Positions 10,378 to 32,935 are shown, numbered from the stretch's first letter. The stretch is DNA of 64,000 nucleotides from an uncultured Terrimonas sp. (GCA_964461595.1 CAYWVB010000023.1:3340-67339), one strand, 5' to 3'. The notes: a model not told the origin generated them from the letters alone. Translations and numbers: made by a program.

Positions 10378-10618
10378 ATGTAACCTTTTTGTTGACACAA
10401 AAAAAGCCGGCAGTGCTTACGACACTACCGGCCTGAAAGTTTGGGTCAACAATGATAACAAAGTCAGGTAAGACTAATTATTTATTCACCCAAAACAAAC
10501 CAAAAGTATGCAAATTTATGCGCACTTTGAACGGGTATTTTTTGCTATGCCCGGAACAAAAGCCAAAACACAAAAAACGTTTTATTTCAACAGGTTACGA
10601 AATGAACGGTTAAAAAAA

Positions 10619-13923: not shown

Positions 13924-15558
13924 ATGAACAAGATATTTAAGCTGTCATTTATAACCATTGCGGCAACAGTAGCCGTTATAATGGGTTGTAAAAAAAGCTT
14001 TTTAGAAACCAGCAATCCTAACCAGCTTACGGAAGATAAGTTTTGGAAAACGGAAGCTGATGTAAAATCTGCCATTGCTTCTGTATATAGCCCGATGCGG
14101 CTACCGCTGAGTGGCTATTGGGGCGCTTTCAGGGGCTACCAGGATATCAATGCATTAGGAGATGATGTACTTACCATCCCCGGCGGGGAACCTTCAACAA
14201 TACAGGTAGCCAATTTCATTAATGATGCAAAAAACGGGGATACGCAGGACATATTTGCCAAGCTGTACAGTTGCATTTACCGGGCTAATTTAGTAATTGA
14301 AAATGCCGGTAACGCAAACCTGGATGCAACCTTAACAAAGAGCTATGTGGCGGAAGCGAAGTTTTTGCGCGGGTTAAGTTTTTTCATCCTGGCATCCAAT
14401 TTTGGAGATGTACCGCTTAAAGTTAGCGTGGCTCAGTCTTCGGAGGATGCTTTTCTTCCCGCTTCGCCTGCGGCCGATGTATACCAGCAGGCTATAAAAG
14501 ATTTTTCTGAAGCAGCAGCGGATCTGCCTCTTACAAGACCGGCAGGAGATAAAGGCAGGATTACACAGGGAGCTGCGATCGCCTTCCTCGGTAAAGCTTA
14601 CCTGTACGTTAAAGATTACGGAAATGCTGAAACCACGTTGGCAAAGCTGCTTACCGCACCTTTTGATTACGACCTTGTCAGCAACTACGAGGATAATTTT
14701 ACCGATAACAATGAATTTAACAAAGAATCAATCCTGGAATGGGTATACGGGCCTTATAACAGCCAGTACAGCCCGTGGAATGAAGAAAGCGGCGGTAATG
14801 CCATGTATAATTATCGCCCGCAGCTTACAGGCAGCAATGGAAGTGGCGGATGGTTTAAATACATTCCATCCCAGTTTGCCATAAAAGAATTTAAAAAAGA
14901 GCTCAGACCAAACGGCTCCGATACAAAATTTGATAAGCGGATGTATGCTACCTTCATGTGGAAGTATTCTGATTTTGGCGAAACAGATGCAACCTGGTAT
15001 AATGCAATGACGTTTGACGATTTGTGGACGGCGGCCTGGACCAGCATTGACCGGTTTGAACCGCTGTACAAGAATTTCCCTGAAGGCAAATTCCTGAATA
15101 AAAAATTTACAAACGCATTGCGCTCTGAAAGTGGTGCGGATAACTATTGGGCTGCGGTGCCCTCTACGGCCAATGTAGAGGTGATGCGTTTTGCCGAAGT
15201 GCTTCTGCTGCACGCTGAAGCAGCGCTGCTGAACAATCATCCCGACATCGCATTGCAGAGCATCAACAGGATAAGGCAAAGAGCCGGCTTATCGACCAAA
15301 GTAGCAGGTGATTTCCCGGGTACCGCTGATCTGATGGCGGAGCTGCAGCACCAGAAATTACTTGAGCTGTATTTTGAGCAAAACCGGTGGAACGATCTAA
15401 AAAGATGGTATCCCACTGCTCCGGAGCTGAAAACATATATGTCTGCTAACCTTAAACAGGGCGCTGACAAAATAGAAAGCAAGCATTATATATTCCCTAT
15501 TCCCGCTGCAGAATTGCAAACCAATAACAATCTTACCCAAAACCCATTATGGAAATAG
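13924..15558 (+). CDS. SusD/RagB-family outer-membrane glycan-binding lipoprotein
   Basis: 544 aa with lipobox VIMGC. It lies immediately downstream of SusC. The C-terminal SusD-like block is MRFAEVLLLHAEAAL...RQRAGL...ELYFEQNRWNDLKRW...IFPIPAAELQTNNNLTQNP. Confidence 0.93.
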   Translation: MNKIFKLSFITIAATVAVIMGCKKSFLETSNPNQLTEDKFWKTEADVKSAIASVYSPMRLPLSGYWGAFRGYQDINALGDDVLTIPGGEPSTIQVANFINDAKNGDTQDIFAKLYSCIYRANLVIENAGNANLDATLTKSYVAEAKFLRGLSFFILASNFGDVPLKVSVAQSSEDAFLPASPAADVYQQAIKDFSEAAADLPLTRPAGDKGRITQGAAIAFLGKAYLYVKDYGNAETTLAKLLTAPFDYDLVSNYEDNFTDNNEFNKESILEWVYGPYNSQYSPWNEESGGNAMYNYRPQLTGSNGSGGWFKYIPSQFAIKEFKKELRPNGSDTKFDKRMYATFMWKYSDFGETDATWYNAMTFDDLWTAAWTSIDRFEPLYKNFPEGKFLNKKFTNALRSESGADNYWAAVPSTANVEVMRFAEVLLLHAEAALLNNHPDIALQSINRIRQRAGLSTKVAGDFPGTADLMAELQHQKLLELYFEQNRWNDLKRWYPTAPELKTYMSANLKQGADKIESKHYIFPIPAAELQTNNNLTQNPLWK

Positions 15559-16970
15559 TGAAGCGATATTGCTCAAAGATACTGCAGGCTCAGTCTGCAG
15601 TATCTTTTTTGTTTATGCTGTTTTCAGGGTGCAGTCCCTGCGATGGTATCAAACTGGTATCGGTAAGCGACAAGACGTCATCTAATAATGTATTGATCAA
15701 AAAAATGGATGTCATCTGCAATAAAAAAGCAGATATTTTCATACGATACAGGGAAAAAGGAGATACCACATCAACATATTCCACTTCCGTTTCTCCAGAC
15801 AAAAAAGAACATTTTTTTTCTTTGCTGTATCTTAAGCCTTCCAAAGCTTATGAGTATGAAATTGTATCCGTTCAAAAAGAATGCGGGAGTACTGTAATTG
15901 GTGCAGGAAAGTTTAAGACAAAAGAAGTGCCGCCAGGCATCCAGGAAATGATAATGCCGGCTGAAATACAGCCACCCCTGCCAGATAAATTTTTAAATGG
16001 TTTTGTACTGGTTGCGCGTCGTGACCTGCCGGGACAAATGTATATAATTGATGCAAAGGGGAATATTGTTTGGTATCATACCATTAGGGATGCCGGCTTT
16101 AAAGTAGCTCATTTTACAAAAAAAGGAACCATCTTATCTTTAGCAGCTCCGCTATCCTACCCTACCAGCTATGGCGACGAGATACTGGAAATTTCCCTTG
16201 CAGGAGATACGGTGTTCCATTTAAAAAAAGGAGAAAAAGGGCTGGATAAAACCATTCACCACGATATATTCTACAACTCATCTCAGCAATTGGTAACATT
16301 GACCCTTGAAAAAAAAGTGTTTGACCTCAGCAGTGTGGGCGGTGCAAAAACAGATACCATAACCGGGGATGGGATACTTGTACTGGACAATAAGGGCAAT
16401 AAGGTTTGGAGCTGGTCAGTATTTGATGTAATAAATCCGTTGACTGATCCTCATATTCTAAAAAATAAAGCTGACTGGCTTCATGCCAACAGCCTGAGCA
16501 TAGATACAGACGGCAATTATTTGCTGTCGTTCTATCTTTCAGGGCAGATATGGAAAATTGATGCAAAAACGGGAAAGCTGATCTGGAAGCTGGGACGTGG
16601 CGGCGATTTTACTTTCCCAAAAGCCGGTCAGTTTTCTGAATCTCATGCCGTACATCGGACATCAGACAACCAATTGATACTGTTTGAAAACGGTATCAGC
16701 AAAAAACAATCATCAGTATTGACATATACATTGGATGAAGCCGCCCGCAAAGCCACGTTAGATCTTTCTATTGTATTGCCAATAAACCTTTATAGCGAAA
16801 GAATGGGAAGCGCTTACCGGGTGGGAGATACCAGTATTTTGGTTTGTAGTTCGCAGGCCAATTCCGTGTCATTGCTGGGTAAAACCGGGGAAATACTATG
16901 GCGGATAAGAACCGGGTTTATCCCTTACCGGGCGGAATTTATTGACAGGCTCCCTTTAAGACCTGAATAA
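15549..16970 (+). CDS. Arylsulfotransferase (ASST)-family beta-propeller lipoprotein
   Basis: 473 aa with lipobox LFSGC. ASST-type blocks are KTIHHDIFY, DWLHANSLSIDTDGNYLLSF and SESHAVHRTSDNQLILFENG. Its start overlaps the SusD stop by 10 nt. Confidence 0.7.
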   Translation: MEIVKRYCSKILQAQSAVSFLFMLFSGCSPCDGIKLVSVSDKTSSNNVLIKKMDVICNKKADIFIRYREKGDTTSTYSTSVSPDKKEHFFSLLYLKPSKAYEYEIVSVQKECGSTVIGAGKFKTKEVPPGIQEMIMPAEIQPPLPDKFLNGFVLVARRDLPGQMYIIDAKGNIVWYHTIRDAGFKVAHFTKKGTILSLAAPLSYPTSYGDEILEISLAGDTVFHLKKGEKGLDKTIHHDIFYNSSQQLVTLTLEKKVFDLSSVGGAKTDTITGDGILVLDNKGNKVWSWSVFDVINPLTDPHILKNKADWLHANSLSIDTDGNYLLSFYLSGQIWKIDAKTGKLIWKLGRGGDFTFPKAGQFSESHAVHRTSDNQLILFENGISKKQSSVLTYTLDEAARKATLDLSIVLPINLYSERMGSAYRVGDTSILVCSSQANSVSLLGKTGEILWRIRTGFIPYRAEFIDRLPLRPE

Positions 16971-17116: not shown

Positions 17117-19522
17117 ATGAATAACAGAAAATGGGCAACGGCCCTGGTATTTATTTTATGCAGTCAGTGGATCCATGCTGTGGAGCTTAAAACAGCCTCC
17201 ACTGTTATTGTTATTAACGACAAAGGCTTCTACACTTCTATCAAAGTGGAAGGCCGGGAAATTATCGGCAAGGGAGCTTACCCGTTGATCTCGGCTGTGA
17301 AAGACGGGCAGATCGTGCTTCCCGTGGCATTAAAAGTAAGCGGCAGCAAATTCCTGTTGACGATGCAGGATAACCAGGTTATTGAGCTGTTGGTGCGGCA
17401 GCAGCAGCAAGCCATAACATACGAAGTCAGTAAGATCAGCAGCGTCTATAAAACGATCGTGTTTGGCCCGGTAAAAGTGGAGCCTCATGAAGTAGTAGGC
17501 GAAGTGGTGGGCGTGACCCAGGGCGGGAATATCGCTTTTGCCATGCAGGCGATGAATATAAAGACCAATGGCGGCATTCCGCAGGAATGCGCGCCGGACT
17601 ACGGTACCTTGTTCAATTATGCAGGCGGCAACACGGATCTTTCTGTTTCGAGCACGCCGTATTACAACTTTGCAGTGGCCGATACAAAAGATGGCGCCGT
17701 GTTCCAGTTGTCGGCCAGGAACCGCTCGCAGCAGGAGTACCGGAAGGTGAACCAGGTCGAAAAAGCGCTGGTGCTTCCGGTAAATGGCGCTGAAGGGAAT
17801 ATCGCCGGCGCTAAGATCGCGCTGTTTGGCGACCAACGCAGCCGGATACTAAACCGGATCGGCAGGGTAGAAACCGAGCAGGGACTGCCGCACCCCATCA
17901 TAGAAGGTGAATGGGGCAAAGAATCAAGAGGCGCTATGCGCTCTTACCTGATCACTAATTTTTCGGAAGATGACCTGGATTTTGTTGTAGAGAAAACCCA
18001 ACGTGCAGGATTCAGAACCCTGTATCACCCCGATCCGTTCAAGACCTGGGGGCATTTTGAGTGGGTCCCATCCCTGACTAAAACCGGGGACGATGGCATA
18101 AAAGCCCTTGTGGAAAGGGCTTCAAAAAAAGGAATAAAGATAGGCGTACATACCTTGTCAAATTTTTTAACAACAAACGATGCCTACGTGACGCCGGCAC
18201 CCGGCAAAAACCTCCTTAAGCAGGGTCAGCTAAGCCTTACAGGCAGTATGGATGATACGCAGACCACACTGGAAGTTGCGGCTTCCGGCCTGTTTGATGT
18301 GCCGCTTACATTAAATGCATTGCAGATCGGCAATGAGCTGATCACTTTTGGCAAGTTTGAAAAAAATGGCGACCGGGTTACGCTTACCGGTTGCACAAGG
18401 GGCGCATTCGGCACAAAAAAAGCAGCGCACGAAAAAAGCGAGCCGTTGTATAAATTATGGGATTACCCGTACCGTACCCTCTTCCCCGACATAGCATTGC
18501 AGGACGAATTTTCTCACCGCCTTGCGGAGATATTTAATAAAACCGGGTTGAAGCAAATTTCTTTTGACGGGCTGGAAGGCTGTATGTACACCGGGCAGGA
18601 TTATTATGCCACGGCGCGGTTTGTGACGGAGTATTACAACCGGCTTCAGAATAAAGCAGACCTTATCAATGATGCCAGCCGCCTGGATCATTATCTCTGG
18701 CATATCCATACACGGATGAACTGGGGAGAGCCCTGGGGCGAAGAAATGCGCAAAGGGCAGGTGGCCAGCCGGATAAAGAACCAGGATTATTTCAGGAGGA
18801 ACCTGTTCCCGCGGATGCTGGGATGGTTCCTGGTAAGACTGGCAGAGCGCAAGTTTGAAGCCACTTCCCTCGAAGACCTCGAATGGGCCCTGTCTGAGTC
18901 GGCCGGCTTTGATGCGGGGTATGCGATGAGCATCAGTATGAAAACATTGAAAAACCACGGGCAGATCAACCTGTTGCTGGATGCGATGAAGAACTGGGAT
19001 GAGCTGCGCTATGCCAACGTATTTACAGAGGATCAGAAAAAACGGCTGAAGGATCCGGAAACGGAATGGCACCTCGAAAAAAAGGATGATAAAAATTTCC
19101 TGCTATATCCCCTGTTCATTTCAGAGCGTTTCCGCTGCAATTTGTCGGAGATGCAGCCGGGGCAGCCGGGCGGGTCCGACTGGTCGTGGAAAAGCCCGGA
19201 GGAAGGCAGTTTTGCGCTGCGGATAAAAGTAGAAGGCGAAGGAGCTATTGCCAACCCTTCCTTTACCACGCCGCTGGGAGTGGTAAAGATCGAAGGGACG
19301 CTGCAGGCCAACCAGTACATCCTGCTCGATCACCAGGGAAAAGCTACCCTTACAGATCAAAATTATAATGTGCTGAAGGAACTGAACGTACAGGGGAAAG
19401 CCCTGTTGCCTAAAGGTGCATCAGGAGTATCATTTGCCTGCGAGCTCGCAGGGGATGACCGCCCTGATGTGGTAGTACGGTACCAGACAAGGATGACCCC
19501 CGAAAAGATAAGCAAGCCCTGA
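17117..19522 (+). CDS. Secreted protein of unassigned family (paralogue 1); putative novel PUL glycosidase
   Basis: 801 aa with a signal peptide (ALVFILCSQWIHA). I recognise no family. It is homologous along its full length to ORF 19854-22157; the shared blocks are listed in the findings. Confidence 0.6.
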   Translation: MNNRKWATALVFILCSQWIHAVELKTASTVIVINDKGFYTSIKVEGREIIGKGAYPLISAVKDGQIVLPVALKVSGSKFLLTMQDNQVIELLVRQQQQAITYEVSKISSVYKTIVFGPVKVEPHEVVGEVVGVTQGGNIAFAMQAMNIKTNGGIPQECAPDYGTLFNYAGGNTDLSVSSTPYYNFAVADTKDGAVFQLSARNRSQQEYRKVNQVEKALVLPVNGAEGNIAGAKIALFGDQRSRILNRIGRVETEQGLPHPIIEGEWGKESRGAMRSYLITNFSEDDLDFVVEKTQRAGFRTLYHPDPFKTWGHFEWVPSLTKTGDDGIKALVERASKKGIKIGVHTLSNFLTTNDAYVTPAPGKNLLKQGQLSLTGSMDDTQTTLEVAASGLFDVPLTLNALQIGNELITFGKFEKNGDRVTLTGCTRGAFGTKKAAHEKSEPLYKLWDYPYRTLFPDIALQDEFSHRLAEIFNKTGLKQISFDGLEGCMYTGQDYYATARFVTEYYNRLQNKADLINDASRLDHYLWHIHTRMNWGEPWGEEMRKGQVASRIKNQDYFRRNLFPRMLGWFLVRLAERKFEATSLEDLEWALSESAGFDAGYAMSISMKTLKNHGQINLLLDAMKNWDELRYANVFTEDQKKRLKDPETEWHLEKKDDKNFLLYPLFISERFRCNLSEMQPGQPGGSDWSWKSPEEGSFALRIKVEGEGAIANPSFTTPLGVVKIEGTLQANQYILLDHQGKATLTDQNYNVLKELNVQGKALLPKGASGVSFACELAGDDRPDVVVRYQTRMTPEKISKP

Positions 19523-19853
19523 TCCTGTATTGGCAAAAAAAACATTGGGTTTGGTCAATTTTATTGTTGTACTTAATGATCCTTTTAAGAATCTTTATGC
19601 CACCTTTTTCACGGGATTAACCGGCCAGCAGGGAGCGCGGGGTACAAGGCGGATACCAGAGCTGTTTGGCAATGATATTTGGGTAAGGGGCTCTGGGTTC
19701 GCGGCAGCGCATGATTATAATGATGAGATTTATTTTTTCGGTAATTATAACGGGAAGGTACCTAACCAAACGAAACCCCGAAGGGGTGGTATATATTAAC
19801 GATGGACACAGCCCATCGAATCAGGCGTAAGCCCATCAGATAAACATAAACTG

Positions 19854-22157
19854 ATGGAAGAACTAAAATCACATTATAATATGTATCAAAATCATTTGAA
19901 AAGAATATTGCTTTCAGGAGTACTGGCTTTCATGGTATTGCATCTTTGCGCCCAGTGGGATTTCAAGACCGATTATTTTAAGATCCACATCAATAACAAA
20001 GGCTTTATCACCAGCATGAAAAGCATTGCCGCTTTCCCCCACCGTGAGTTTAGCCCTGCAGGTAAACCCTCACCGTTGATGTTATTGTATGACGGGAATA
20101 AAAAGCAGTATTACCAGCCGGTTAAGGCATCTTATCAGAAAACAGGGAACCTGGTAATCCTCCGGTTTACGAACGGATCAGTGGCGCAGATACGCTTACA
20201 ACCACAAGCCAAATACCTGAAGCTCACATTGCTGTCACTCTCCAACAGGAAAGATATTGAAGACGTGCAGTGGGGAACGTATCATACCAATATCACCAAC
20301 CTGTTGGGCGAGATCATCGGCGTGGCGCGCGATACCAGCGAAGCAGTGAATTATGCCATCGGTATGCTGGCGCTGGACGATAATACGCTTAGCGGACTTT
20401 CATCCACCGTTGGCGATGCAGCGCCTTTCCAGTATATCATTCATACACCGGATGCAAAACGGTTTCCGTTGCCTGATTCATTGCATGAAGGACAGGTATT
20501 CAGCCTTGGCGGCAATGGCATCAGTGATGTGGCGTTTTATGCCCATAAGGAACCCTGGTACCGCATTATGTATGGCGATGCCGCACAGGTGGATGCCAAA
20601 GGGCGTATCTCCATTGCTTACCACTCAAGAAACCGCACCGGAAAAAGAGAGATCCTGTTTTCGCTTATACCGCACATGGCGGCAAACACGCCCAATCACA
20701 TAGAGGTGCAGCCCCTGCCCGGCGTGGATTATATAGGATCGTCCGTAGCGCTGTGGGGTAGCCCCGACAGCACGGCGCTCTTAGATGTGATTCAAAACAT
20801 TGTTTTGTCGGAAAAGCTGCCTTATCCTACCATCAATGGTAAATGGGTAAAAGACCCTGCCGCTTACGTGCCCGACCTGCTGACCAGCGGCGGTCTGTAC
20901 GACAGCAGCATTGCCTATGCAAAGCGGTTAGGATTTAAAGCGATCAGCCTGTACGACCAGGGATTTTTAAGACCCGACCGCGGCAACGGGGGATATATAG
21001 ACGGCATACACTTTGAGAATAAGCCCATAAAAATGACAGCCGGGAATAAATCGCAAAAAGAATTTTCTGAACTGGCTGCCAGGGAAGGAATTATCATCGG
21101 GCGCACACCCATCACCAATTCGCTGGCGCCCGGTACAAAGGATGCAAGCCCCGTTCCGAGCGACAGCCTCTGTTACCAGCAGAAACGTTTGCTGGCAAAA
21201 GGTATCAGCCCTGACGATACCATCATCATTGTAAATGACCCGAAACATCTGGAAGAGATCGCCAGTTGGGAAGGACATTGCGCCAGCCTGAACATGATAA
21301 AGATCGGTAAAGAACTTATTCACTATCTTGGCGTAGCTGACAAGCCCCCTTACCGTTTGCTGAACGTACAGCGCGGTTACTGGAAAACAGCTGCGGCGGC
21401 GCATAACGCCGGCGATACGGTTTACAAATTGCAGGTTACGGTCAATTATGGATATGACGGGATCATTCCCAATATGCAGTTGCAGGATGAAATTGCAAAA
21501 TGGTATGCCGCGGTTTGCAGCATCAACGGGCTGGCATATTATGATTTTGACGGGCAGGAGTTTTTATTCAATAACGGGCACGGCTACTACTCTGCCAAAC
21601 GGTTCTTCCATAAAATGTTTGACCATGCTAAACAACTGGGCGTGCCTTATATCCGGTTTACAGGAGCTACTTTATCAGAAGGCTCCTGGCATTATCAAAG
21701 CATCTGGAATGTAGGCGGCGGAAAAAATTTGTATGATGCGGATACCCGGGAATGGGGCAGCACTACCAGCCAGGGAAAAGACCTCCGGGATGTAACCTAT
21801 TCCAATTTTTTTCCTGTAGGCATGGGCGGCAATTTTCCCATTACCGCCAAATCAACTGCAGAGCAATACGAGCATATACAAGCTATTTCAGTTGGAGTGG
21901 GCACTACTTATAGTCTTCAGTTAAACCAGAAAGATGTGGAAAGCTGTCCGCAGAAAGAAGCCATTTTCAGCGTGATCCGCACCTGGGAAGATGCACGCGC
22001 CGCCAATGCTTTTCCCCGGCGCATTAAAATGCAGTTGGCAGACCCTCAAAGAAACTGGAGGTTAGAAGCGAAAGATGCCAATACCTGGGTGTTGTATGAA
22101 ATGATCAACGGCAGTAAGGTCAACCCGGTAACGCTAACAAGAGCGCCGGGATATTAA
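19854..22157 (+). CDS. Secreted protein of unassigned family (paralogue 2); putative novel PUL glycosidase
   Basis: 767 aa. The likely start is ATG 19881 (MYQNHLKRILLSGVLAFMVLHLCAQ signal). It aligns with ORF 17117-19522 from N- to C-terminus at low identity. Confidence 0.6.
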   Translation: MEELKSHYNMYQNHLKRILLSGVLAFMVLHLCAQWDFKTDYFKIHINNKGFITSMKSIAAFPHREFSPAGKPSPLMLLYDGNKKQYYQPVKASYQKTGNLVILRFTNGSVAQIRLQPQAKYLKLTLLSLSNRKDIEDVQWGTYHTNITNLLGEIIGVARDTSEAVNYAIGMLALDDNTLSGLSSTVGDAAPFQYIIHTPDAKRFPLPDSLHEGQVFSLGGNGISDVAFYAHKEPWYRIMYGDAAQVDAKGRISIAYHSRNRTGKREILFSLIPHMAANTPNHIEVQPLPGVDYIGSSVALWGSPDSTALLDVIQNIVLSEKLPYPTINGKWVKDPAAYVPDLLTSGGLYDSSIAYAKRLGFKAISLYDQGFLRPDRGNGGYIDGIHFENKPIKMTAGNKSQKEFSELAAREGIIIGRTPITNSLAPGTKDASPVPSDSLCYQQKRLLAKGISPDDTIIIVNDPKHLEEIASWEGHCASLNMIKIGKELIHYLGVADKPPYRLLNVQRGYWKTAAAAHNAGDTVYKLQVTVNYGYDGIIPNMQLQDEIAKWYAAVCSINGLAYYDFDGQEFLFNNGHGYYSAKRFFHKMFDHAKQLGVPYIRFTGATLSEGSWHYQSIWNVGGGKNLYDADTREWGSTTSQGKDLRDVTYSNFFPVGMGGNFPITAKSTAEQYEHIQAISVGVGTTYSLQLNQKDVESCPQKEAIFSVIRTWEDARAANAFPRRIKMQLADPQRNWRLEAKDANTWVLYEMINGSKVNPVTLTRAPGY

Positions 22158-22241: not shown

Positions 22242-22985
22242 CTAATTTTCCCTTCTGCTTTCAATAATATATACAAAGCTGTCGGCCCTGTAAAAGCCTA
22301 AATTGTATTCCGTCGGGCGCTCCACCTGGTCGTAAACGAATCGTTTCCTGAATAAAACAGGGCTGCCAACGTCAAGCTGCAATTTGCCGGCTAAAAATTT
22401 GTCGGCTGCCCGGGCGCTGATCTCTTCCTTGGAAAGATTGGCAATGACCTGGTGATCTTTTTCCAGGATTTCATACAGGGGACGCTTGAAATCTTCTTCG
22501 CCTGTAAGCCCGATCCGCGGATGGAAATACGAAACAAAGTAAACGAACGGGCCTTCTGGTCTTCCTCTTAAGCGTTCTAACTTTAATACTTTTTTGTTGG
22601 CATTGATTTCAAAAAAATTAGCAATGCTTTCTTCCGGCTTTACCCAGCTTAAGCTGAGTTCAAAATTTTTGATGGGTATGCCCCGTATCGCCATTTCCTG
22701 CGAAAAGCTCAGCCAGTTCAGCGCTTTAGAGCTAACCATATTGTTCACCTTGGTGCCAATGCCCTTTTTGCGTACCAGCAGCCCTTCATACACGAGCTTA
22801 TTAATGGCCTGCCGTAAAGTGCCTCTCGATATGTTCAGCTTATGGGCAAGCTCAATTTCGTTGGGCAGGTGCTTACCCTTCTGGTACTGGGGTTGTTTTG
22901 CTATTTTTCTAAGGAGCTCTTCCGCCTGTACATGCAGGGGAATAGGACTCTTGTGGTCAATTGAAAAACTCATACGTATTAACAA
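22242..22985 (-). CDS. GntR-family transcriptional regulator, HutC subfamily (wHTH + UTRA)
   Basis: 247 aa. The N-terminal wHTH is LPNEIELAHKLNISRGTLRQAINKLVYEGLLVRKKGIGTKV. The C-terminal UTRA-like part is FSQEMAIRGIPIKNFELS...LKLERLRGRPEGPFVYFVSYF...YRADSFVY. Confidence 0.88.
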   Translation of the reverse strand: MLIRMSFSIDHKSPIPLHVQAEELLRKIAKQPQYQKGKHLPNEIELAHKLNISRGTLRQAINKLVYEGLLVRKKGIGTKVNNMVSSKALNWLSFSQEMAIRGIPIKNFELSLSWVKPEESIANFFEINANKKVLKLERLRGRPEGPFVYFVSYFHPRIGLTGEEDFKRPLYEILEKDHQVIANLSKEEISARAADKFLAGKLQLDVGSPVLFRKRFVYDQVERPTEYNLGFYRADSFVYIIESRREN

Positions 22986-23651: not shown

Positions 23652-26327
23652 ATGAAGCGCATAATCCTCTTCCTTTTTCTTATTGCATGTACGGCAACAG
23701 CCGCGTATACCCAGTTGAATAAAAACAAGCCGGTAAACCCCAAAGTAACCGATATATGGGTGGTGTTTAAAACACATTTTGATTTAGGCTTTACCGATCT
23801 GCCTGAAAATGTTTTTAAACGCTACCGGGAAGAAATGATGGATAATGCCCTGAAAGTAATGGAGCACAGTGAAACACTGCCGAAGGAGAAGCGTTTTGCC
23901 TGGACGGTTCCCGGGTGGCCGTTAGAGGCTCAGATACTGGGGCCACTGCAAACGCCCGAACGGAAGGCAAGGATCGGGAAAGCCATCCGGAACGGAACGC
24001 TGGCCGTACATGCGCTGCCCTTTACAACACATACCGAGTCGCTCGATTATGAAGACCTGGTGCGCGGGCTGGGCTATTCTTCGGCGGTGGCAAGGAAGTA
24101 CGGCCAGCCGTTGCCCATTAGTGCAAAGATGACAGATGTGCCCGGCCACTCATGGATCATGCCTACCCTGCTAAATCATGCAGGCGTCCGGTTCTTGCAA
24201 TTAGGCTGTAACCCCGCAAGCCAGTACCCGCGTTTTCCCGAACTGTTCTGGTGGGAAGGCGCCGATGGCTCAAAAATATTATGCAATTACACGGCTTTAT
24301 ATGGTTCTGATATCCGGCCAACCCCTGGTTGGCCCTGTAAGAATTACCTGGCCATGCAAATGACCGGCGACAATCACGGGCCACCCACAGCCGGGGAGAT
24401 TGATAAGCTGCTGGCTTATGCGGCAAAAGAATTACCGGGTATAAAAATTCATTTTGGCACGCTGGATGATTTTGCGAAAGCCATATTTGCAGAAAACCCT
24501 TCGTTGCCTACGGTAAAAGGTGATTGCCCGGATACCTGGATACAGGGCCTGCAATCCAACCCGCAGGAAACAAAGCTGGCAAGGGATATCCGCCCTATGG
24601 AACCGGCACTGGACGGATTGCATACACAATTAAAAGCCTGGGGAGCGCCTGTAGCACCAATTGCCGGAAAGCTGGACAAAGCTTATGAGCAAAGTTTATT
24701 GTATGCCGAACATACCTGGGGCATGAATGCGGAATATGGCCCCCGTTACAGCTATGGAGATGCCTGGAAAAAATGGATGGATGAAGCGGCAGCTGAACCA
24801 CTGCCGGAGAACAACAATTATGCTGCGCTGAAAAACAGCGATGCCCACAATACTTCAACCGGGAGCAAACGGAAATGGCTTCGTTCTTACGAAGATAAGC
24901 GGCAATACATCCGCAACACAAACGAAATCGTAAGCACAACGCTGCACAGTGAGCTGGATATACTGGCCGCATCGGTTAACAAGCAGGGAAAACGGGTGGT
25001 TGTATATAACCCGTTGCCCTGGAAAAGATCGGGCATGATAGAAAACCCGCTGGAGAAAGGTACCTTTTTTTATGCAGCGGACATAGCACCATCAGGCTAC
25101 AGCACCTATACTGCCGATGCATTGCAGCAGGGCGGCGCCAGCAGCGATGAACAACCCGTTTTCAGTACGCCTTATTATAAAGTTATTTTCGATTTAACCA
25201 AAGGGGGTATCGCATCCTTAATGGAAAGATCAACCGGCAGAGAACTCGTGGATACCGCATCGGGCTATACGCTGGGGCAATTTATGCACGAGCGCTTCAG
25301 CTCTAACGAAGTGGATACATGGTTCAATGCGTATAGCCGCATCAAAGACGGCTGGGGACTTAACGACCTGGGAAAACCCGGAATGCCCAAGGCAGATATT
25401 GTACCATATCTGGCATTTACGCCCCGGTCATGGAAGATAAGCGTTACCCATTCCGCTATGGCTGATATAGCTGTATTGACGGCCGTTACTACAGGTGGGT
25501 TTGCGAAGGGTTACACTTTAACCTTTACGTTTCCCCGTAAAGCGCCTTATGTAGATGTGGAGTGGATGGTGGACACCAAAACCGCCGACAAACAACCGGA
25601 AGGCGGCTGGCTTTGTTTTCCGTTCAAAGTGGAACAACCTACATTTACGATTGGCCGTTTAGGTGGCCCCGTCAATCCGGCAAAAGATATTATCGCAGGG
25701 ACCAACCGGTACTTAATGGCCGTAAATACAGGGGTAGCCGTTACGCAGGCCGATCACTCCGGCATGGCCATTACGCCAATTGATGCACCGTTGGTAAGCC
25801 TCGGTGTGCCCGGCCTGTGGAAATTTGATATGGACTATGTGCCCACCATACCATCCGTATTTGTGAACCTGTACAATAATATGTGGAATACAAATTTTCC
25901 TTTATGGCAGGATGGGTCGTGGAGCGAACGGGTGCGTGTGTGGCCCGTGCCTAAAGGTTCTCAGCCAGTTTCAAACCTGGTGCAAAATGCCTGGGAAGCG
26001 CGTTTGCCCTTATTAACAGGCGTGGCAGAAGGAGAAGCCGGGAAATTACCTGCCGCAAGAGCCGGTATTTCCATTTCCCGGAAAAATGTTTTGATCACAG
26101 CCTTTGGCGATAACCCCTACGGGAAAGGAACGATCCTCCGCCTGTGGGAGCAGGCAGGCGTTTCGGGCAAATGCACGGTGCAATTTACAACGGGCATAAA
26201 TGTGAAAGCCGTTGTACCCATTGATCTGAGAGGAACGGCTATTGGTAAAAAAATAACTGTGACCAACAACGCTTTTTCTTTTAACCTGGATAAATATACT
26301 CCGGCATCGTTCCTGCTTATTTATTAA
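23652..26327 (+). CDS. GH38-like alpha-mannosidase
   Basis: 891 aa with a signal peptide. VVFKTHFDLGFTD carries an HxD metal motif. MTDVPGHSW is the D..GH nucleophile region, as in the GH38 N-domain. The size and the GH92 context fit. Confidence 0.65.
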   Translation: MKRIILFLFLIACTATAAYTQLNKNKPVNPKVTDIWVVFKTHFDLGFTDLPENVFKRYREEMMDNALKVMEHSETLPKEKRFAWTVPGWPLEAQILGPLQTPERKARIGKAIRNGTLAVHALPFTTHTESLDYEDLVRGLGYSSAVARKYGQPLPISAKMTDVPGHSWIMPTLLNHAGVRFLQLGCNPASQYPRFPELFWWEGADGSKILCNYTALYGSDIRPTPGWPCKNYLAMQMTGDNHGPPTAGEIDKLLAYAAKELPGIKIHFGTLDDFAKAIFAENPSLPTVKGDCPDTWIQGLQSNPQETKLARDIRPMEPALDGLHTQLKAWGAPVAPIAGKLDKAYEQSLLYAEHTWGMNAEYGPRYSYGDAWKKWMDEAAAEPLPENNNYAALKNSDAHNTSTGSKRKWLRSYEDKRQYIRNTNEIVSTTLHSELDILAASVNKQGKRVVVYNPLPWKRSGMIENPLEKGTFFYAADIAPSGYSTYTADALQQGGASSDEQPVFSTPYYKVIFDLTKGGIASLMERSTGRELVDTASGYTLGQFMHERFSSNEVDTWFNAYSRIKDGWGLNDLGKPGMPKADIVPYLAFTPRSWKISVTHSAMADIAVLTAVTTGGFAKGYTLTFTFPRKAPYVDVEWMVDTKTADKQPEGGWLCFPFKVEQPTFTIGRLGGPVNPAKDIIAGTNRYLMAVNTGVAVTQADHSGMAITPIDAPLVSLGVPGLWKFDMDYVPTIPSVFVNLYNNMWNTNFPLWQDGSWSERVRVWPVPKGSQPVSNLVQNAWEARLPLLTGVAEGEAGKLPAARAGISISRKNVLITAFGDNPYGKGTILRLWEQAGVSGKCTVQFTTGINVKAVVPIDLRGTAIGKKITVTNNAFSFNLDKYTPASFLLIY

Positions 26328-26347
26328 TAGTACATAAAAATGCTTGT

Positions 26348-28702
26348 ATGAATAAAAACCGGGAATCTTTACATCGGGCGCTTTTATTGCTGGCATTGAG
26401 CGTAGTTGTTTTTTGCAAACCATCTGCCGCGCAAAAAGATTTTACACAATATGTAGATCCGGCTATTGGCACAGCCCATTGCCGGTGGTTTCATTATACA
26501 CCCGGAGCGCTTCCGTTTGGCATGGCCAAGCCTGCCCCATCCACTAATGGCAGCTATGGCAATGCCAGCGGTTGGGAAGCTACAGGCTACGATTACAGGC
26601 ATACTTCTATTGAAGGATTCCCCAATTTTCACGAGTTCCAGATCGGGGGGATTGTATTTGCCCCCATTACAGGTGCCTTGCAAACCACCCCCGGAAAATT
26701 GGAATCGCCGGAAAGCGGCTACCGGTCGCGCTTCGACCGTAAAAACGAGATCAGCACAGCCGGCTATTATTCCGTTTTGCTGAGCGACTATAATATCCGC
26801 GCTGAACTGACCGCCACAAAAAGGGTGGCTTTTCACCGATACACTTTCCCCGCCACAAAACAGGCGCATATTTTATTCGATATTGGTAACCAGCAGGGCG
26901 AAAGCGGGCCGGTACAGGATGCCAAAGTATATCTGTTGCCCGATGGCAGGGTGGAAGGCTGGGTAACCACCTTGCCGGCGTATGTTCAAAAATACCAGCC
27001 CGGTGCCACCGTTACTATGTATTTTTCAGCGGTTGTCAGTAAAAAATATACCGCCTGCGGCGCTTTCAATGGTAATGCTATCCGGGAAGGCGCAAAAGAA
27101 GCCAGCGGCAAAGGCGCCGGTTTGTATCTCAGCTTTATAACGGAGGATAAGGGATCTATTACTGTTAAAGCAGGACTGTCTTACACCTCTGTTGGAAACG
27201 CCAGGAAAAATTTAGAAGAAGAATCTTCGGGGCTGACCTTCGATCAGGCAAGGGTGCAGTCTAAAAAAATATGGAACGAATACCTGGGAAGAATAGAAGT
27301 GGAAGGAAAAAACAAAGCTGATAAGGTGAAGTTTTATACCGGGCTTTATCATGCCCTGCTGGGCAGAGGGCTTGCCAGTGATGTAAACGGCGCTTATCCC
27401 AAAAATGACGGCACCACAGGGCAAATTCCGCTGAGCAAAAACGGGAAGCCGTTGCACGCGCATTATAATACCGATGCGGCCTGGGGCATTTACTGGAACC
27501 TGGCGCAGCTTTGGGCGCTGGCTTATCCCGAATATTACTCAGACTTTATCAAAAGCCAGTTGCTGGTATATAAGGACGCCGGCTGGCTGGGTGACGGAAT
27601 AGCCGCCAGCCGTTATGTTTCGGGAGTGGGTACCAATTTTGTAGGACTTGTTTTTGCCGGCGCTTATGAGGCGGGCATCCGGGATTTTGACGTGAACCTG
27701 GCTTATGAGGCTGCATTGAAGAACGAGCTGGAATGGAAAGACCGCCCGTTTGGTGCAGGAAAAATGGATGTGGACAGGTTCCGCAAATATGGATATGTAA
27801 ACCATTTGGATAGCGGCAAAGGCGGCAGCGAGCTATGGCAGTTTTCTGTTTCGCATACCCTGGAATATTCATTCAGCACCTATGCCATAGCACAATGGGC
27901 GCAACAGCTCGGCAAAAAAAAGGATTATGAAGAACTGCTCCCTCTGTCGAAGGCATGGGAAAAAGTATATGACCCGGCGTTAAAACTTGTAAGACCCCGG
28001 CTGGCCAATGGTGAGTTTGTGGATCCTTTTGATCCTTCCCAGCCCTGGCGGGGATTCCAGGAGGGCAATGCCTGGCAATACACGTATTTTGTTCCGCACG
28101 ATATTGAAGCATTAGTGAAAAAAATGGGAAAGCAAACCTTTAACCAGCGCCTCGACAGCATCTTCACCATTGCTGAAAAAGCCTTGTTTGGCGGCGGCTC
28201 CAATATTGATGCCTTTGCCGGAATAGCCGGCGTTTATAACCACGGCAACCAGCCCAACCTGCATGTTTCCTGGCTGTTTAATTTTTCCGGCAAATCATCG
28301 CTTACCCAAAAATGGGTGCGGGCTATTTGTAACCAGTTTTATGGTACCGAAGGCATACACGGCTATGGTTATGGCCAGGATGAAGACCAGGGACAGCTTG
28401 GAGCCTGGTATGTACTGTCGTCCATCGGTTTGTTTGATATAAAAGGATTGACCAGCACAGATCCGCAGATGGGCATCGGCAGCCCCTTATTCGATAAAAT
28501 AAAAATCAGGCTCAATCAAAAATATTATACCGGGAAAGCGTTCACCATTGAAACCAAAAATAACAATGATGAAAATATATATGTGCAGTCAATGTTTTTG
28601 AATGGGCAGCCGTTGCATTCACCTTTTATTGCCTGGAAGCAGGTTACAAAAGGAGGAAAGCTCAGTTTGCAAATGGGCCGCACACCTAAAGATATTTATT
28701 AG
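26348..28702 (+). CDS. GH92 alpha-mannosidase
   Basis: 784 aa with a signal peptide. GH92 landmarks are QYVDPAIGTAHCRW, GNQPNLHVSWLFNF and QDEDQGQLGAWYVLSSIGLF. Confidence 0.92.
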   Translation: MNKNRESLHRALLLLALSVVVFCKPSAAQKDFTQYVDPAIGTAHCRWFHYTPGALPFGMAKPAPSTNGSYGNASGWEATGYDYRHTSIEGFPNFHEFQIGGIVFAPITGALQTTPGKLESPESGYRSRFDRKNEISTAGYYSVLLSDYNIRAELTATKRVAFHRYTFPATKQAHILFDIGNQQGESGPVQDAKVYLLPDGRVEGWVTTLPAYVQKYQPGATVTMYFSAVVSKKYTACGAFNGNAIREGAKEASGKGAGLYLSFITEDKGSITVKAGLSYTSVGNARKNLEEESSGLTFDQARVQSKKIWNEYLGRIEVEGKNKADKVKFYTGLYHALLGRGLASDVNGAYPKNDGTTGQIPLSKNGKPLHAHYNTDAAWGIYWNLAQLWALAYPEYYSDFIKSQLLVYKDAGWLGDGIAASRYVSGVGTNFVGLVFAGAYEAGIRDFDVNLAYEAALKNELEWKDRPFGAGKMDVDRFRKYGYVNHLDSGKGGSELWQFSVSHTLEYSFSTYAIAQWAQQLGKKKDYEELLPLSKAWEKVYDPALKLVRPRLANGEFVDPFDPSQPWRGFQEGNAWQYTYFVPHDIEALVKKMGKQTFNQRLDSIFTIAEKALFGGGSNIDAFAGIAGVYNHGNQPNLHVSWLFNFSGKSSLTQKWVRAICNQFYGTEGIHGYGYGQDEDQGQLGAWYVLSSIGLFDIKGLTSTDPQMGIGSPLFDKIKIRLNQKYYTGKAFTIETKNNNDENIYVQSMFLNGQPLHSPFIAWKQVTKGGKLSLQMGRTPKDIY

Positions 28703-28760
28703 GCACCTGTGCACATTGCTATAAAATGTTTAAGAAATCATTCATTCAAACGGTACAAAG

Positions 28761-31532
28761 ATGTTTAAAAAATTGCTCTTCATTTTGTTGTTGCATTGCT
28801 GTTGTTTTTGCATATATGCCGGCCCCGGCAGCATTGCCAATAAGGCAACGGTGACCGCTTCTTCTGAAAATACGGAAAAAGGAAAAGCCGCCAACGTGGT
28901 GGATGGCATTATCCGCATAGATGGTAAAGGAGAATGGGTATCAAAAAGTACGGTTACTTTTTGGGGGCAGATTGACTATCCCTGGATACAATTGGATTGG
29001 CAGCAGCCGCAGTCCATCAACAAAATTATTGTGTACGACCGCGTTTCAGATGCTTCGCACAATGCAGGCGGTATCTTGATCTTCAGCAATGGCGCCCGCA
29101 TTCCCGTGCTGCAGATACCCAACAACGGTGCGGCTAAAGTGATCAGCTTCCCTGAACAAACCGTCAGTTGGGTACGCTTTGAAACCACCGATGCCAATGG
29201 CCCTGCGATAGGATTATCGGAAATAGAAGTATATCCCTCTCCTGCGCAGATCACTGATCCTGTTTCCTGGGTGGATCCTTATATTGAAACCACACGCGGC
29301 CGCTATTTTTACTTCGCCACAGGCAGCCAGCCCTTTGGTATGATCAGCGCGGCGCCGCTTACCCGCAACAAAAACCAGTACGGCGGCGGCTACAATTACA
29401 ATTCAACCGAAATACTTGGTTTTCCCCAGATACATTGCTGGATGATGTCGGGCATATCCCTGATGCCCGTAACCGGGAATATAGCCCTGCATAAAGGCGA
29501 GCAGGAATGGAAATCAGGATTTTCGCACGATGGCGAAATTGTGCAGCCGGGATATCACCGGCTTTACTTAGACAAGTATGATACCTGGGTAGAGCAAACT
29601 GCCGCCGACCGCATCAGCTTCTACCGCTTTACTTATACCAAAGATGCGCTGGCTAATGTATTGGTAAGCCTGGGCGGTTACCTGGGCGAGGCTACGATGA
29701 ATGATGCACGGGTAGAAAAATTGAGCAATACACGCATCGCAGGTTCTGTAAATACAACGGGACGGCTTTGGGGCGGGCCTGAAAATGTCCGCATCTACTT
29801 TGTGATTGATTTTGAAAAACCATTTGAACAATTAAATGGGTGGAGCGATAAGGAAGAGATGTTCAACATCACTGCATTAACCGGCAGCGCCGGAAAAACA
29901 GCAAGGAACAGCGGTTCAATGAGCTATTACGATGCTCCTGCAGCAGGCGTGGCCGCGCAATACCAGGTGAAGGCGGGCGATAAAATACAAATGAAAGTAG
30001 CGGTTTCTTATACCAGCATTGATAATGCAAAGCGGAATCTTGAATCGGAAAACAGCAGCTGGAATTTTGATGAGCATCGAACAGCTTCGCAAAACGAATG
30101 GAACGAAATGCTGGGGCGCATTGCTGTAAAAGGCGGAAGCGGCAATCAAAAAATAAAATTCTATACCGATCTCTGGCATGTACTGCTGGGGCGGCATAAG
30201 CTGGATGATGTGTCCGGCGACTATCCCGATAATACCGAAGGCGAGCGGCGCGGAAGTTTTACTATTAACACAAAATTCAAAGTAAGAACATTACCCAAAG
30301 ACCAAAATGGCAAAGCAAAATTTCACATGTACAATTCGGATGCATTTTGGCTGACACAATGGAACCTGAACATCCTGTGGGGCCTGGCCTGGCCCGAAGT
30401 GCTGGATGATTTTGCCGCCTCCTTAATTCAGTACGCCGAAAATGGAAAGCTGCTTCCGAGAGGTCCCTGCGGCGGCGGGTATTCTTATATCATGACAGGA
30501 TGCCCTGCTACCAACCTCATTACCTGCGCCTATCAGAAGGGGTTGCTTACTAAAAAACCGGCAGCCATAGCTTACGAAATGATGAAGCAAAACCATGCGC
30601 CGGGCGGCATGATGGGTGGAAAAGAAGAAATGGAATTTTACATTAAAAACGGATATTATCCTTCTAATGCAGGCATCAGTCTGGAGATTGCTTTCCAGGA
30701 TTGGGCGCTGGCGCAAATGGCGCAAAAATTAGGGAAGAAAAAAGATTACGAATACTTCCTGCATCGCTCGCAGGGATGGACAAAGCTATACAACCCGGAG
30801 CAAAAGCTGATTTTCCCCAAAGACAAAGAAGGGAACTGGCTGCATCGTGATGCCCTCAGCGGACATGGATGGGTGGAAGCCAATGCCTGGCAGGCTACCT
30901 GGTCGGTATCGCAGGGCATACCGCAATTGGCAAAGATGATGGGAGGCAATGACACGCTTTGCAAAATGCTCAACTTTGCATTTGAGCAGGCCAAAGACCA
31001 GGATTTTGTTTTTGGCTATGGTGCAGGATATGTTAGCTATGCCAACCAGCCCGGCTGCTCCAATGCGCATGTATTCAATTATGCCGGCCGCCCCGATCTG
31101 ACCCAGTATTGGGTGCGCAGGGTAAACGAGCAGGCTTATGGCGCCGTTACGCCCGACAAAGGTTATGGCGGGCACGATGAAGACCAGGGACAAATGGGCG
31201 GTGTAAGCGCACTAACCTCTATCGGGTTATTTAGTTTAACCGGCACCTGTTCTATCAACCCGGAGTATGATATTACCAGCCCGGTGTTTGATGAAGTAGT
31301 GATAAAACTCAATAACAACTATTATACTGGAAAAGAATTTGTGATTAAAACTTACAATAACTCCAAAGCAAATTGTTACATACAAAAAGCTGCGTTAAAC
31401 GGAGCGGCATATAATAAATTCAGTTTTTCGCATAGCGATTTTGCTAAAGGCGGTGTGCTTGAATTATGGATGGGGGCAGCGCCGGATTATTCCTGGGGCA
31501 AGGCATCCCCAACCGCTGGGGAGAAACAGTAA
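28761..31532 (+). CDS. GH92 alpha-mannosidase with N-terminal discoidin (F5/8 type C, CBM32-like) domain
   Basis: 923 aa. The N-terminal ~150 aa read ATVTASSENTEKGKAANVVDG...PWIQLDWQQPQSINKIIVYDR...IGLSEIEVY. The GH92 blocks WVDPYIETTRGRYF, ANQPGCSNAHVFNY and HDEDQGQMGGVSALTSIGLF follow. Confidence 0.9.
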   Translation: MFKKLLFILLLHCCCFCIYAGPGSIANKATVTASSENTEKGKAANVVDGIIRIDGKGEWVSKSTVTFWGQIDYPWIQLDWQQPQSINKIIVYDRVSDASHNAGGILIFSNGARIPVLQIPNNGAAKVISFPEQTVSWVRFETTDANGPAIGLSEIEVYPSPAQITDPVSWVDPYIETTRGRYFYFATGSQPFGMISAAPLTRNKNQYGGGYNYNSTEILGFPQIHCWMMSGISLMPVTGNIALHKGEQEWKSGFSHDGEIVQPGYHRLYLDKYDTWVEQTAADRISFYRFTYTKDALANVLVSLGGYLGEATMNDARVEKLSNTRIAGSVNTTGRLWGGPENVRIYFVIDFEKPFEQLNGWSDKEEMFNITALTGSAGKTARNSGSMSYYDAPAAGVAAQYQVKAGDKIQMKVAVSYTSIDNAKRNLESENSSWNFDEHRTASQNEWNEMLGRIAVKGGSGNQKIKFYTDLWHVLLGRHKLDDVSGDYPDNTEGERRGSFTINTKFKVRTLPKDQNGKAKFHMYNSDAFWLTQWNLNILWGLAWPEVLDDFAASLIQYAENGKLLPRGPCGGGYSYIMTGCPATNLITCAYQKGLLTKKPAAIAYEMMKQNHAPGGMMGGKEEMEFYIKNGYYPSNAGISLEIAFQDWALAQMAQKLGKKKDYEYFLHRSQGWTKLYNPEQKLIFPKDKEGNWLHRDALSGHGWVEANAWQATWSVSQGIPQLAKMMGGNDTLCKMLNFAFEQAKDQDFVFGYGAGYVSYANQPGCSNAHVFNYAGRPDLTQYWVRRVNEQAYGAVTPDKGYGGHDEDQGQMGGVSALTSIGLFSLTGTCSINPEYDITSPVFDEVVIKLNNNYYTGKEFVIKTYNNSKANCYIQKAALNGAAYNKFSFSHSDFAKGGVLELWMGAAPDYSWGKASPTAGEKQ

Positions 31533-31585
31533 TACCTAAAAGTTTTAAATGATCAGCTATAAATTATTTACTAATACTTATAAAA

Positions 31586-32875: not shown

Positions 32876-32935
32876 AAAAGTTTGCACCAGTGTAAAAACA
32901 CCAGATAAAAGTTGAATCCACTCTAATTTTGATGT

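Follow-up and report, generated by a model that had tools for sequence, protein, structure and literature searches.

The families of clan GH-D of the glycoside hydrolases (GH), namely GH27, GH31 and GH36, place a (beta/alpha)8 barrel between two beta-sandwiches, one N-terminal and one C-terminal, and carry the catalytic nucleophile at the end of barrel strand 4, as does GH13. In the model of Bacteroidota polysaccharide utilization loci (PULs), enzymes exported with signal peptidase I (SPI) signals act in the periplasm on imported oligosaccharides, and the endo-acting enzymes that define the specificity of a locus are usually surface lipoproteins. Here we describe two adjacent genes, P1 and P2 (paralogues 1 and 2), found in a PUL within a 64,000-nucleotide stretch of DNA from an uncultured Terrimonas sp. 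(GCA_964461595.1 CAYWVB010000023.1:3340-67339), which is called the window below. Their products belong to two subfamilies of an unannotated protein family, and we lean towards the interpretation that they are periplasmic carbohydrate-active enzymes with a clan GH-D-like architecture that act by retaining hydrolysis.

The likeness to clan GH-D lies at the level of architecture. The three-part layout is common to the models of P1 and P2 (template modeling (TM) scores of 0.26 to 0.40), an aspartate is predicted at the end of strand 4, where GH27, GH31 and GH36 carry the nucleophile, and the genes occur in the same kinds of glycan loci. The reference structures were, for GH36, the Flavonifractor plautii alpha-galactosaminidase (9ayu, 9awt and 8x1b) and the Arabidopsis alkaline alpha-galactosidase (7exf) and, for GH31, 5aee, the endoplasmic reticulum alpha-glucosidase II (5f0e), FjDex31A (6jr6) and a sulfoquinovosidase (6pnr). 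P1 and P2 differ from these enzymes in having a beta-domain of about 100 residues after strand 3 and in sharing only 7-11% identity with them; in addition, the conserved Asp of the strand-6 acid/base position was not located in the P1/P2 family. Clan GH-H (GH13) shows another set of resemblances, since it has a beta-domain between strand 3 and helix 3 (domain B) and an Asp after strand 4, and the conserved E538 of P1, in the loop that follows strand 5, is reminiscent of the acid/base position of GH13. However, the Foldseek E-values were weaker (1e-6 to 1e-4) and the region IV His/Asp pair was not identified in P1 or P2. Pyruvate-kinase-type barrels, which also have a domain B, were second-tier fold matches. 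GH163, GH185 and the DUF4091-type beta-hexosaminidase-like families, recently discovered in loci for N-glycans and mucin, were likewise large "DUF" triosephosphate isomerase (TIM) barrel families in glycan loci of Bacteroidota and Firmicutes before they were characterized, but they are GH20-like and use substrate-assisted catalysis, whereas the fold matches of P1 and P2 belong to clan GH-D.

Two paralogous genes and their relatives

The P1 gene occupies positions 17117..19522 of the window on the plus strand, codes for 801 amino acids and represents the canonical subfamily. The P2 open reading frame (ORF) lies at 19854..22157 on the same strand, codes for 767 amino acids and represents a divergent, highly conserved subfamily with an apparently remodeled active site. 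The true start of P2 is most likely M10 at position 19881, giving a protein of 758 amino acids, because a 100%-identical database protein (P0121, 758 amino acids) and the orthologues start there. BLASTP aligned residues 10-667 of P1 with residues 27-751 of P2 at 25% identity and 41% positives over 747 columns (E=2e-41), and by this alignment the two proteins are old, true paralogues. The original prediction, made from the DNA alone, had described divergent paralogues in these two plus-strand ORFs and had quoted five blocks of shared sequence, all of which are present in the alignment. Its statement that the proteins align end to end applies to P2 but not to P1, whose C-terminal ~134 residues (668-801) have no P2 counterpart and are modeled as a further beta-sandwich. 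The signal peptides that it had recognized at both N-termini were confirmed and are of the SPI rather than the lipoprotein type. It had also been right that neither protein can be placed in a known family, and that the pair lies between SusC/SusD and a GH38/GH92 block. To this context can now be added an arylsulfotransferase (ASST)-like gene before P1, a GntR gene after P2 and, upstream of SusC, genes for a sigma factor and FecR.

The spacer between P1 and P2 is 331 nucleotides long (19523-19853) and includes a short GC hairpin, ACCCCGAAGGGGT, at 19775-19787. This hairpin has a terminator-like score on both strands, and therefore P1 and P2 may be separate transcription units. A sigma-70 promoter/terminator scan found terminator-like sites around the pair at a frequency not above that in shuffled sequences. 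Promoter-like sites were in modest excess (15 vs 9.5 ± 3.2 in shuffles), as scored by a sigma-70 tool that does not model Bacteroidota promoters.

Neither P1 nor P2 had a significant match in Pfam-A (2025) or NCBIfam (June 2026), and no PDB chain (up to 2026) was matched by phmmer or by hmmsearch with the family profile. Searches for homologues retrieved 1,389 sequences with P1, 962 with P2 and 1,544 with a third subfamily (subfamily 3), which was found adjoining P1 in Niabella hirudinis. An exhaustive HMMER search of 1.84 billion cluster representatives recovered 1,301 clusters (50% identity) at E≤1e-3, of which 327 also passed E≤1e-30; the core common to the family corresponds roughly to P1 residues 50-660. 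A scan of one genome per species yielded 576 relatives. The family covers Bacteroidota, Firmicutes, Actinobacteria and Poribacteria, the last through one metagenome-assembled genome. It includes members from Niabella, Sphingobacterium, Pedobacter, Parabacteroides, Phocaeicola, Prevotella, Paenibacillus and Cohnella, as well as from Muribaculaceae, Lachnospiraceae and Oscillospiraceae. The closest named relatives of P1 are from Niabella (87%), by which the window would come from a Niabella-like member of the Chitinophagaceae, and the best 120 of the 962 P2 homologues are at least 73% identical and are spread over Chitinophagaceae and Sphingobacteriaceae. In long members, F5_F8_type_C (discoidin-type carbohydrate-binding), Laminin_G_3, CBM_4_9, GH101_dom-5, Big_2/4 (immunoglobulin (Ig)-like) and FIVAR domains are fused to the core, a modularity that is usual for secreted carbohydrate-active enzymes.

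Database names of members are "hypothetical" or "uncharacterized", or are derived from accessory domains (discoidin, NEW3, Ig), and literature searches found no characterized member and, on the newest GH families, nothing relevant. The family is without annotation and, with Pfam, NCBIfam and the PDB taken as stand-ins for CAZy, probably unclassified there. It is unlikely that it is instead already an established CAZy family, either one created between 2023 and 2026 or a deeply divergent subfamily of GH31 or GH36, which the annotation has failed to reach. That GH families now number to at least GH195 would fit such a gap, as would the UniRef cluster labels of a few members (P0136, P0147, P0189 and P0482), namely "DUF4091", "related to GH101" and "DUF5703", which hint at glycosidase-related domains. 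These labels were rejected as cluster-label noise, and the Pfam scan of P0136 and P0189 did not reproduce the domains. Across the 43 members scanned with Pfam (P1, P2 and 41 relatives) there was no match to Glyco_hydro_31, Melibiase or Melibiase_2 at E≤1, and none to Alpha-amylase, Glyco_hydro_76 or Glyco_hydro_99. The domains PF16126, PF13320 and PF11308 (DUF4838, DUF4091 and GHL/GH101-related) matched 0 of the 43, including those UniRef-labeled members that were scanned. An identity with GH163 or GH185, which are DUF4838 families, was rejected on these grounds. GH195, a new endo-alpha-1,3-mannanase family that occurs with GH92 in alpha-mannan PULs, is described as GH99-like, and this description sets it apart from P1 and P2 by its different architecture (PMC13063451), so an identity with it was also rejected.

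Predicted fold and conserved residues

The two proteins were modeled with AlphaFold2, secondary structure was assigned by DSSP, and each model was compared separately with the PDB by Foldseek. The predicted local distance difference test (pLDDT) and predicted TM (pTM) scores were 82.8 and 0.78 for P1 and 78.7 and 0.82 for P2 (the numbering of the P2 model is that of the ORF minus 9). Both models open with an N-terminal beta-sandwich and continue into a (beta/alpha)8 barrel that is interrupted after strand 3 by a beta-domain of ~100 residues; one C-terminal beta-sandwich closes the P2 model and two close that of P1. On the plus strand, the N-terminal all-beta domain of P1 (residues ~22-240, pLDDT mostly >90) is encoded at 17180..17836 and the predicted catalytic barrel (residues ~265-645) at 17909..19051. 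The beta-domain between barrel strand 3 and helix 3 (residues ~346-447), which carries E407, R428 and H438, is encoded at 18152..18457, and the C-terminal beta-sandwich region (residues ~650-801) at 19064..19519. The P2 equivalent of the inserted beta-domain is found at 21105-21458, also on the plus strand. The motif IGxELI...RGxxGTxxxxH of this domain bears a weak resemblance to Pfam Rcc01698_C, a domain from the C-terminus of a gene-transfer-agent or phage-tail-like protein of Rhodobacter. The match (E=0.003 in P1, residues 400-442, and 3e-6 in a long Paenibacillus member) was seen in 18 of the 43 members and was the only recurrent weak signal.

The top Foldseek matches of P1 were the structures of the GH36 alpha-galactosaminidase (9ayu at 3.3e-12, followed by 8x1b and 9awt, to 3e-11). 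Many GH31 enzymes came next at ~1e-8, among them glucosidase II, FjDex31A, the sulfoquinovosidase and GAA, and a lower tier was formed by GH66, GH13 and pyruvate kinase (a TIM barrel with domain B). P2 matched GH31 5aee (1.8e-9) and GH36 9ayu (7e-9), then Arabidopsis GH36, GH27 and GH13. The alignments extended over most of the chain at 7-11% identity, and many of the top structural matches are exo-acting alpha-glycosidases. The predicted fold is thus that of a catalytic TIM-barrel glycosidase rather than a pure binding fold.

Residue conservation was assessed with 109 divergent representatives sharing ~28-54% identity with P1. A set of polar residues was kept at 86-98%: K268, H345, D355, E407, R428, H438, D484, E487, W528, E538, N562 and R631. 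The candidate nucleophile is D484 of P1, in the sequence ISFDGLE (codon at 18566..18568, plus strand), and its equivalent in P2 is D566, in YDFDGQE (codon at 21549..21551, plus strand). This residue is invariant in all three subfamilies as compared with one another, and among the 109 representatives it is Asp in 94%, with Glu or Asn in the others. D484 stands directly after the P1 strand 480-482, and D566 after strand 551-556 of the P2 model. The two residues are placed at the end of barrel strand 4, at the C-terminal side, because they come directly after the strand that follows helix 3. The candidate acid/base of P1 is E538, in NWGEPWG (codon at 18728..18730, plus strand), a position occupied by E in 86% and by D in 7% of the representatives. 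This role is tentative, because the loops between W528 and G569 are poorly modeled; residues 528-568 form a barrel loop of P1 that combines high conservation with low model confidence.

The comparison of the subfamilies singled out P2. Four positions that do not vary within the P1 clade or subfamily 3, H345, D355, W536 and E538, are occupied by T, T, V and R in the P2 clade. In place of the family motif GVHTL...ND, P2 has the segment IGRTPITNSLAPGT (21105..21137, plus strand), in which H345 is replaced by T418 and D355 by T428. Each of the two threonines is found in 18 of 19 P2-clade sequences, and the corresponding H and D in all 42 sequences of the P1 clade and subfamily 3. The P2 clade has also acquired a 10-residue loop insertion. 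Since the clade is at least 73% identical and the replacement residues are uniform, these changes point to altered function rather than decay, and P2 looks like a protein with a specificity-shifted active site and not like a decaying copy. The four exchanged residues together with the gained loop indicate a different sugar or linkage specificity.

Several observations weigh against the interpretation of P1 and P2 as retaining hydrolases of GH-D-like architecture. The whole-chain TM-scores of the fold matches were 0.2-0.4, with large root-mean-square deviations, and the likeness is therefore one of architecture and not of family membership. No link to any GH family was found at the sequence level. 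The comparison by hhalign of a 61-sequence family profile with a true GH36 protein (Melibiase 2e-147, from locus L070) gave a probability of 0.17% (E=0.34), and that with a weak-Melibiase neighbor protein gave 0.1%. The sole hhalign alignment with GH36 sets the Asp of the family DFDG motif on the nucleophile Asp of the GH36 KWD motif; the alignment is non-significant and this correspondence is suggestive only. The loops with the best-conserved residues (P1 528-568 and P2 model 612-647) were modeled at pLDDT <50. E538 is shared by the P1 clade and subfamily 3, but the P2 clade has lost it, with R in its place and E one residue further on (E633). E487 persists in the P1 and P2 clades, and most members of subfamily 3 have Gly there. 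These two losses make the acid/base assignment weak. The only acidic residues invariant across the three subfamilies are D484, E407 and E589, and a search for a strand-6 acid/base found no family-wide invariant Asp between residues 488 and 585, a region with pLDDT <50.

Glycan loci, localization and possible substrates

Every neighborhood of a homologue that was inspected is a PUL or adjoins an ATP-binding cassette (ABC) sugar transporter. In Parabacteroides the order is SusC-SusD-GH2-GH29-P1-like, and in Sphingobacterium it is SusC/D-GH38N/DUF5054-P1-like-GH43, with GH97 and a fucose-type catabolic module nearby. The P2 orthologue P0161 lies in a SusC/D-GH3-P2-like-GH2-GH20 arrangement, and that of Pedobacter in GH95...GH20-P2-like-GH97 along with an aldo-keto reductase, MR_MLE, SSF and rhaM. 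A Lachnospiraceae locus includes GH116-like, GH36, ABC transporter, P1-like, GH3, GH18 and GH78-like genes, and a Paenibacillus locus a two-component system, an ABC transporter, a P1-like gene and DUF5054. When all ORFs within 10 kilobases (kb) of 79 P1-like loci were clustered, SusC was found in 20 of the 79, SusD in 14, FecR in nine and the extracytoplasmic function (ECF)-sigma factor in eight. The most frequent glycosidase neighbors were DUF5054/GH38-like proteins and GH29 (9/79 each), followed by GH127-like (7/79) and by GH120-like, GH92 and GH2 (5/79 each); an SSF transporter was present in 7/79. The Firmicutes loci contain ABC sugar permeases, and the DUF5054/GH38-like neighbors range from Sphingobacterium to Paenibacillus.

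The P1-P2 tandem is kept in seven of the eight closest Niabella/Chitinophagaceae loci, and none of these eight has GH92 within 10 kb. Members of different subfamilies can share a locus, two to four at a time, and this, like the conserved tandem, speaks for split specificities. Arrays of three or four were seen in L012 (10001-20408, Niabella hirudinis), L013, L029 and L056; that of L012 consists of a P1-like gene, an 830-amino-acid subfamily 3 member, a P2-like gene and a second P2-like gene (59% identity). The family is firmly tied to glycan-utilization loci, as a portable module that is not specific to those for mannan.

The P1 signal peptide comprises residues ~1-21 (...WIHA|VELK; 17117..17179, plus strand), and neither P1 nor P2 has a lipobox. 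SPI-type N-termini lacking a lipobox were the rule in every P1-clade protein examined and in most P2-clade ones, and in many members of subfamily 3 there is a lipoprotein box, after which the residues are acidic or rich in lysine. P1 and P2 are thus predicted to be periplasmic. Both combine an SPI signal with a gene in a SusC/SusD locus, as PUL-encoded periplasmic glycosidases do. They do not resemble SusE/F-like surface binders, in that they have no lipobox and do have a central barrel with conserved acidic residues.

According to the mechanism that we propose, SusC/D would import oligosaccharides into the periplasm, where P1 and P2, by exo or debranching action, would each remove its own kind of linkage or decoration, unusual or not involving mannose, which the neighboring mannosidases of the GH92 and GH38-like types are unable to break. 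The glycosidic bond would be attacked in a retaining double displacement, with D484 of P1 and D566 of P2 as nucleophiles. The candidate general acid/base would be a Glu in the loop after strand 5, E538 in P1 and possibly E633 in P2. P2 would not be redundant, as its sugar or linkage specificity would differ from that of P1. The recurrent partners, GH38-like/DUF5054, GH29, GH2, GH20, GH3, GH18 and GH92, suggest with low confidence that the substrates may belong to the N-glycan/mannoprotein type or to other fucosylated heteroglycans.

The original prediction had gone further and seen in P1 and P2, in an alpha-mannosidase PUL where it recognized no endo-acting enzyme elsewhere, the best candidates for an activity that sets the specificity of the locus. 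In this reading they would be one or two endo-alpha-mannanases analogous to GH76, GH99 or GH195, which would open the degradation of a yeast or fungal alpha-mannan and thereby decide on the diet served by the PUL. Such a role is quite improbable. It would suit the position of the genes, after SusC/SusD and before the GH38-like and GH92 genes, and a Pfam scan of the PUL found no GH76, GH99, GH18 or GH85, in agreement with the earlier remark that GH76- and GH99-like enzymes are missing from it. The structural class also includes endo-enzymes (the GH31 dextranase 6jr6 and the GH66 dextranase 8iub), and the many lipoproteins of subfamily 3 may be surface enzymes. However, the scarcity of GH92 near P1-like genes and its absence from the nearest relatives do not fit a mannan-dedicated function, and orthologues are paired instead with GH2/GH29, GH38-like/GH43, GH3/GH2/GH20 or GH95/GH20/GH97, the last set together with catabolic genes of the fucose type. 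The SPI signals argue against a specificity-setting surface role. GH76 enzymes are (alpha/alpha)6 barrels and those of GH99 and GH195 are small single-domain barrels; none of the three families appeared among the top 50 Foldseek matches. GH195, being GH99-like, has another architecture (PMC13063451). Moreover, the window has other candidates, namely two ~430-amino-acid proteins and the ASST-like lipoprotein described below. The endo-acting part of the original prediction is unsupported, since GH92 is rare in the loci, the signals are of the SPI type, many of the best fold matches are exo-acting and other candidates exist in the window. Its proposal of a new glycan-cleaving activity gains from the predicted catalytic fold and the invariant acidic residues. 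In the survey for GH92 and GH38 that it had suggested, GH38-like/DUF5054 proteins were among the commoner partners and GH92 was rare, and the association with glycan loci at large was strong. As for a conserved acidic pair shared by the paralogues, the strand-4 Asp is present in both and E538 is replaced in the P2 clade. The three findings that it had named as fatal to a new activity, a match to a characterized family, a fold of the binding type only and homologues unconnected with glycan loci, did not emerge at the sequence level.

The chances are poorer still for a non-catalytic role, in which a degenerate glycosidase fold would serve P1 and P2 for glycan binding or scaffolding and P2 would perhaps be the catalytically dead partner of P1. 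The four residues that P2 lacks and that are invariant elsewhere in the family, as well as the difficulty in assigning an acid/base, would be explained in this manner, but the strand-4 Asp and many polar barrel residues kept at 86-98% throughout the family would not. The P2 clade is strongly constrained, with at least 73% identity across bacterial families and uniform replacements. Carbohydrate-binding modules are appended to members, as is usual for enzymes, and the lipoprotein signal expected of SusE/F-type surface binders is missing. Least probable of all is that the two are carbohydrate-active non-hydrolases on the same barrel (a glycoside phosphorylase, a transglycosylase or an alpha-glucan-lyase-like enzyme), for although GH13 branching enzymes, 4-alpha-glucanotransferase and sucrose phosphorylase belong to the structural class, hydrolases account for many of the strongest matches, and a signal peptide and a periplasmic PUL location are typical of them.

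The surrounding locus and the significance of the family

The PUL begins with genes for an ECF-sigma factor (8482-9069), a FecR anti-sigma factor (9169-10377), a SusC with an STN domain (10508-13894) and a SusD (13924-15558), all identified as ORFs with Pfam matches on the plus strand. The ASST-like gene (15549..16970, plus strand; Pfam Arylsulfotrans, 5e-27) is located between SusD and P1 and encodes a beta-propeller that is a probable lipoprotein (..FSGC). Its start overlaps the SusD stop by 10 nucleotides, and P1 is directly downstream; in locus L011 an orthologue (83%) also directly precedes P1. P2 is followed on the minus strand by a GntR/UTRA regulator (22242..22985; Pfam UTRA 6e-26, GntR 2e-13), divergent from a downstream glycosidase block on the plus strand (23652..36106). 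This block consists of genes for a GH38N/DUF5054 (GH38-like) protein (23652-26327), a GH92 (26348-28702), a DUF7402-GH92 protein (28761-31532), a 429-amino-acid protein with no family assignment (31586-32875) and a CBM-like-GH92 protein (32936-36106). The gene order is thus ECF-sigma, FecR, SusC, SusD, ASST-like, P1, P2, GntR (minus strand), GH38-like, GH92, GH92, 429-amino-acid ORF and GH92.

The 429-amino-acid protein had no Pfam or PDB match. It is 54% identical (E=3e-162) to another secreted protein of ~430 amino acids encoded at 46705-48012, and each of two adjacent PULs has one of them; the second protein showed only a weak GDE_C match, of the (alpha/alpha)6-barrel type, a fold shared by GH76 and GH125. 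Homologues of these proteins are found near the P1-P2 pair in L012 and L014. Judged by their sequences, the two are candidates for further glycosidases. The 429-amino-acid ORF, which lacks PDB and Pfam matches and is paralogous to the weak-GDE_C ORF, is at most a tentative candidate for the "missing" endo-enzyme. Proteins combining GH38N and DUF5054 occur twice in the window (23652-26327 and 48017-50779) and also in ten other loci (L004, L017, L020, L023, L024, L029, L032, L040, L042 and L086); a literature search on DUF5054 turned up nothing relevant. The window has three SusC/SusD pairs (starting at 10508/13924, 41472/44595 and 58674/61745) and encodes a GH32, a GLAA-B/beta-helix protein, a PhyH dioxygenase and a sugar transporter of the major facilitator superfamily, as well as a large FG-GAP/ASPIC protein on the minus strand. 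An ORF of 575 amino acids (53302-55029) gave only weak phosphomannose-isomerase cupin matches.

P1 and P2 probably represent a new GH family on a known scaffold. A more specific proposal can be made tentatively, and we regard it as possible rather than likely: that the proteins form a new CAZy GH family, a GH-D-like branch no longer recognizable by sequence, with at least three functionally distinct subfamilies that co-occur in PULs and cleave a linkage of N-glycan/mannoprotein-type and fucosylated heteroglycans to which no enzyme has been assigned. In this proposal the P2 clade would have a rearranged apparatus, with the equivalents of H345, D355 and E538 lost and a new loop Glu gained. The advance would be incremental, as new GH families are added yearly, and does not amount to a new type of biological system.

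Should these proteins be enzymes, annotation at present overlooks a whole family, with more than 1,300 clusters at 50% identity, and the glycan-degradation pathways predicted for such loci miss one step. This would concern soil Chitinophagaceae and Sphingobacteriaceae as well as gut Parabacteroides, Phocaeicola, Prevotella, Lachnospiraceae and Oscillospiraceae. Once the activity is defined, models of the PULs that combine GH38-like/DUF5054, GH29, GH2, GH20 and GH92 would be complete, CAZy would probably gain a family, and new linkage-specific tools for glycan analysis might follow. The arrays of P1, P2 and subfamily 3 genes would then be a natural experiment in the divergence of specificity on one scaffold.

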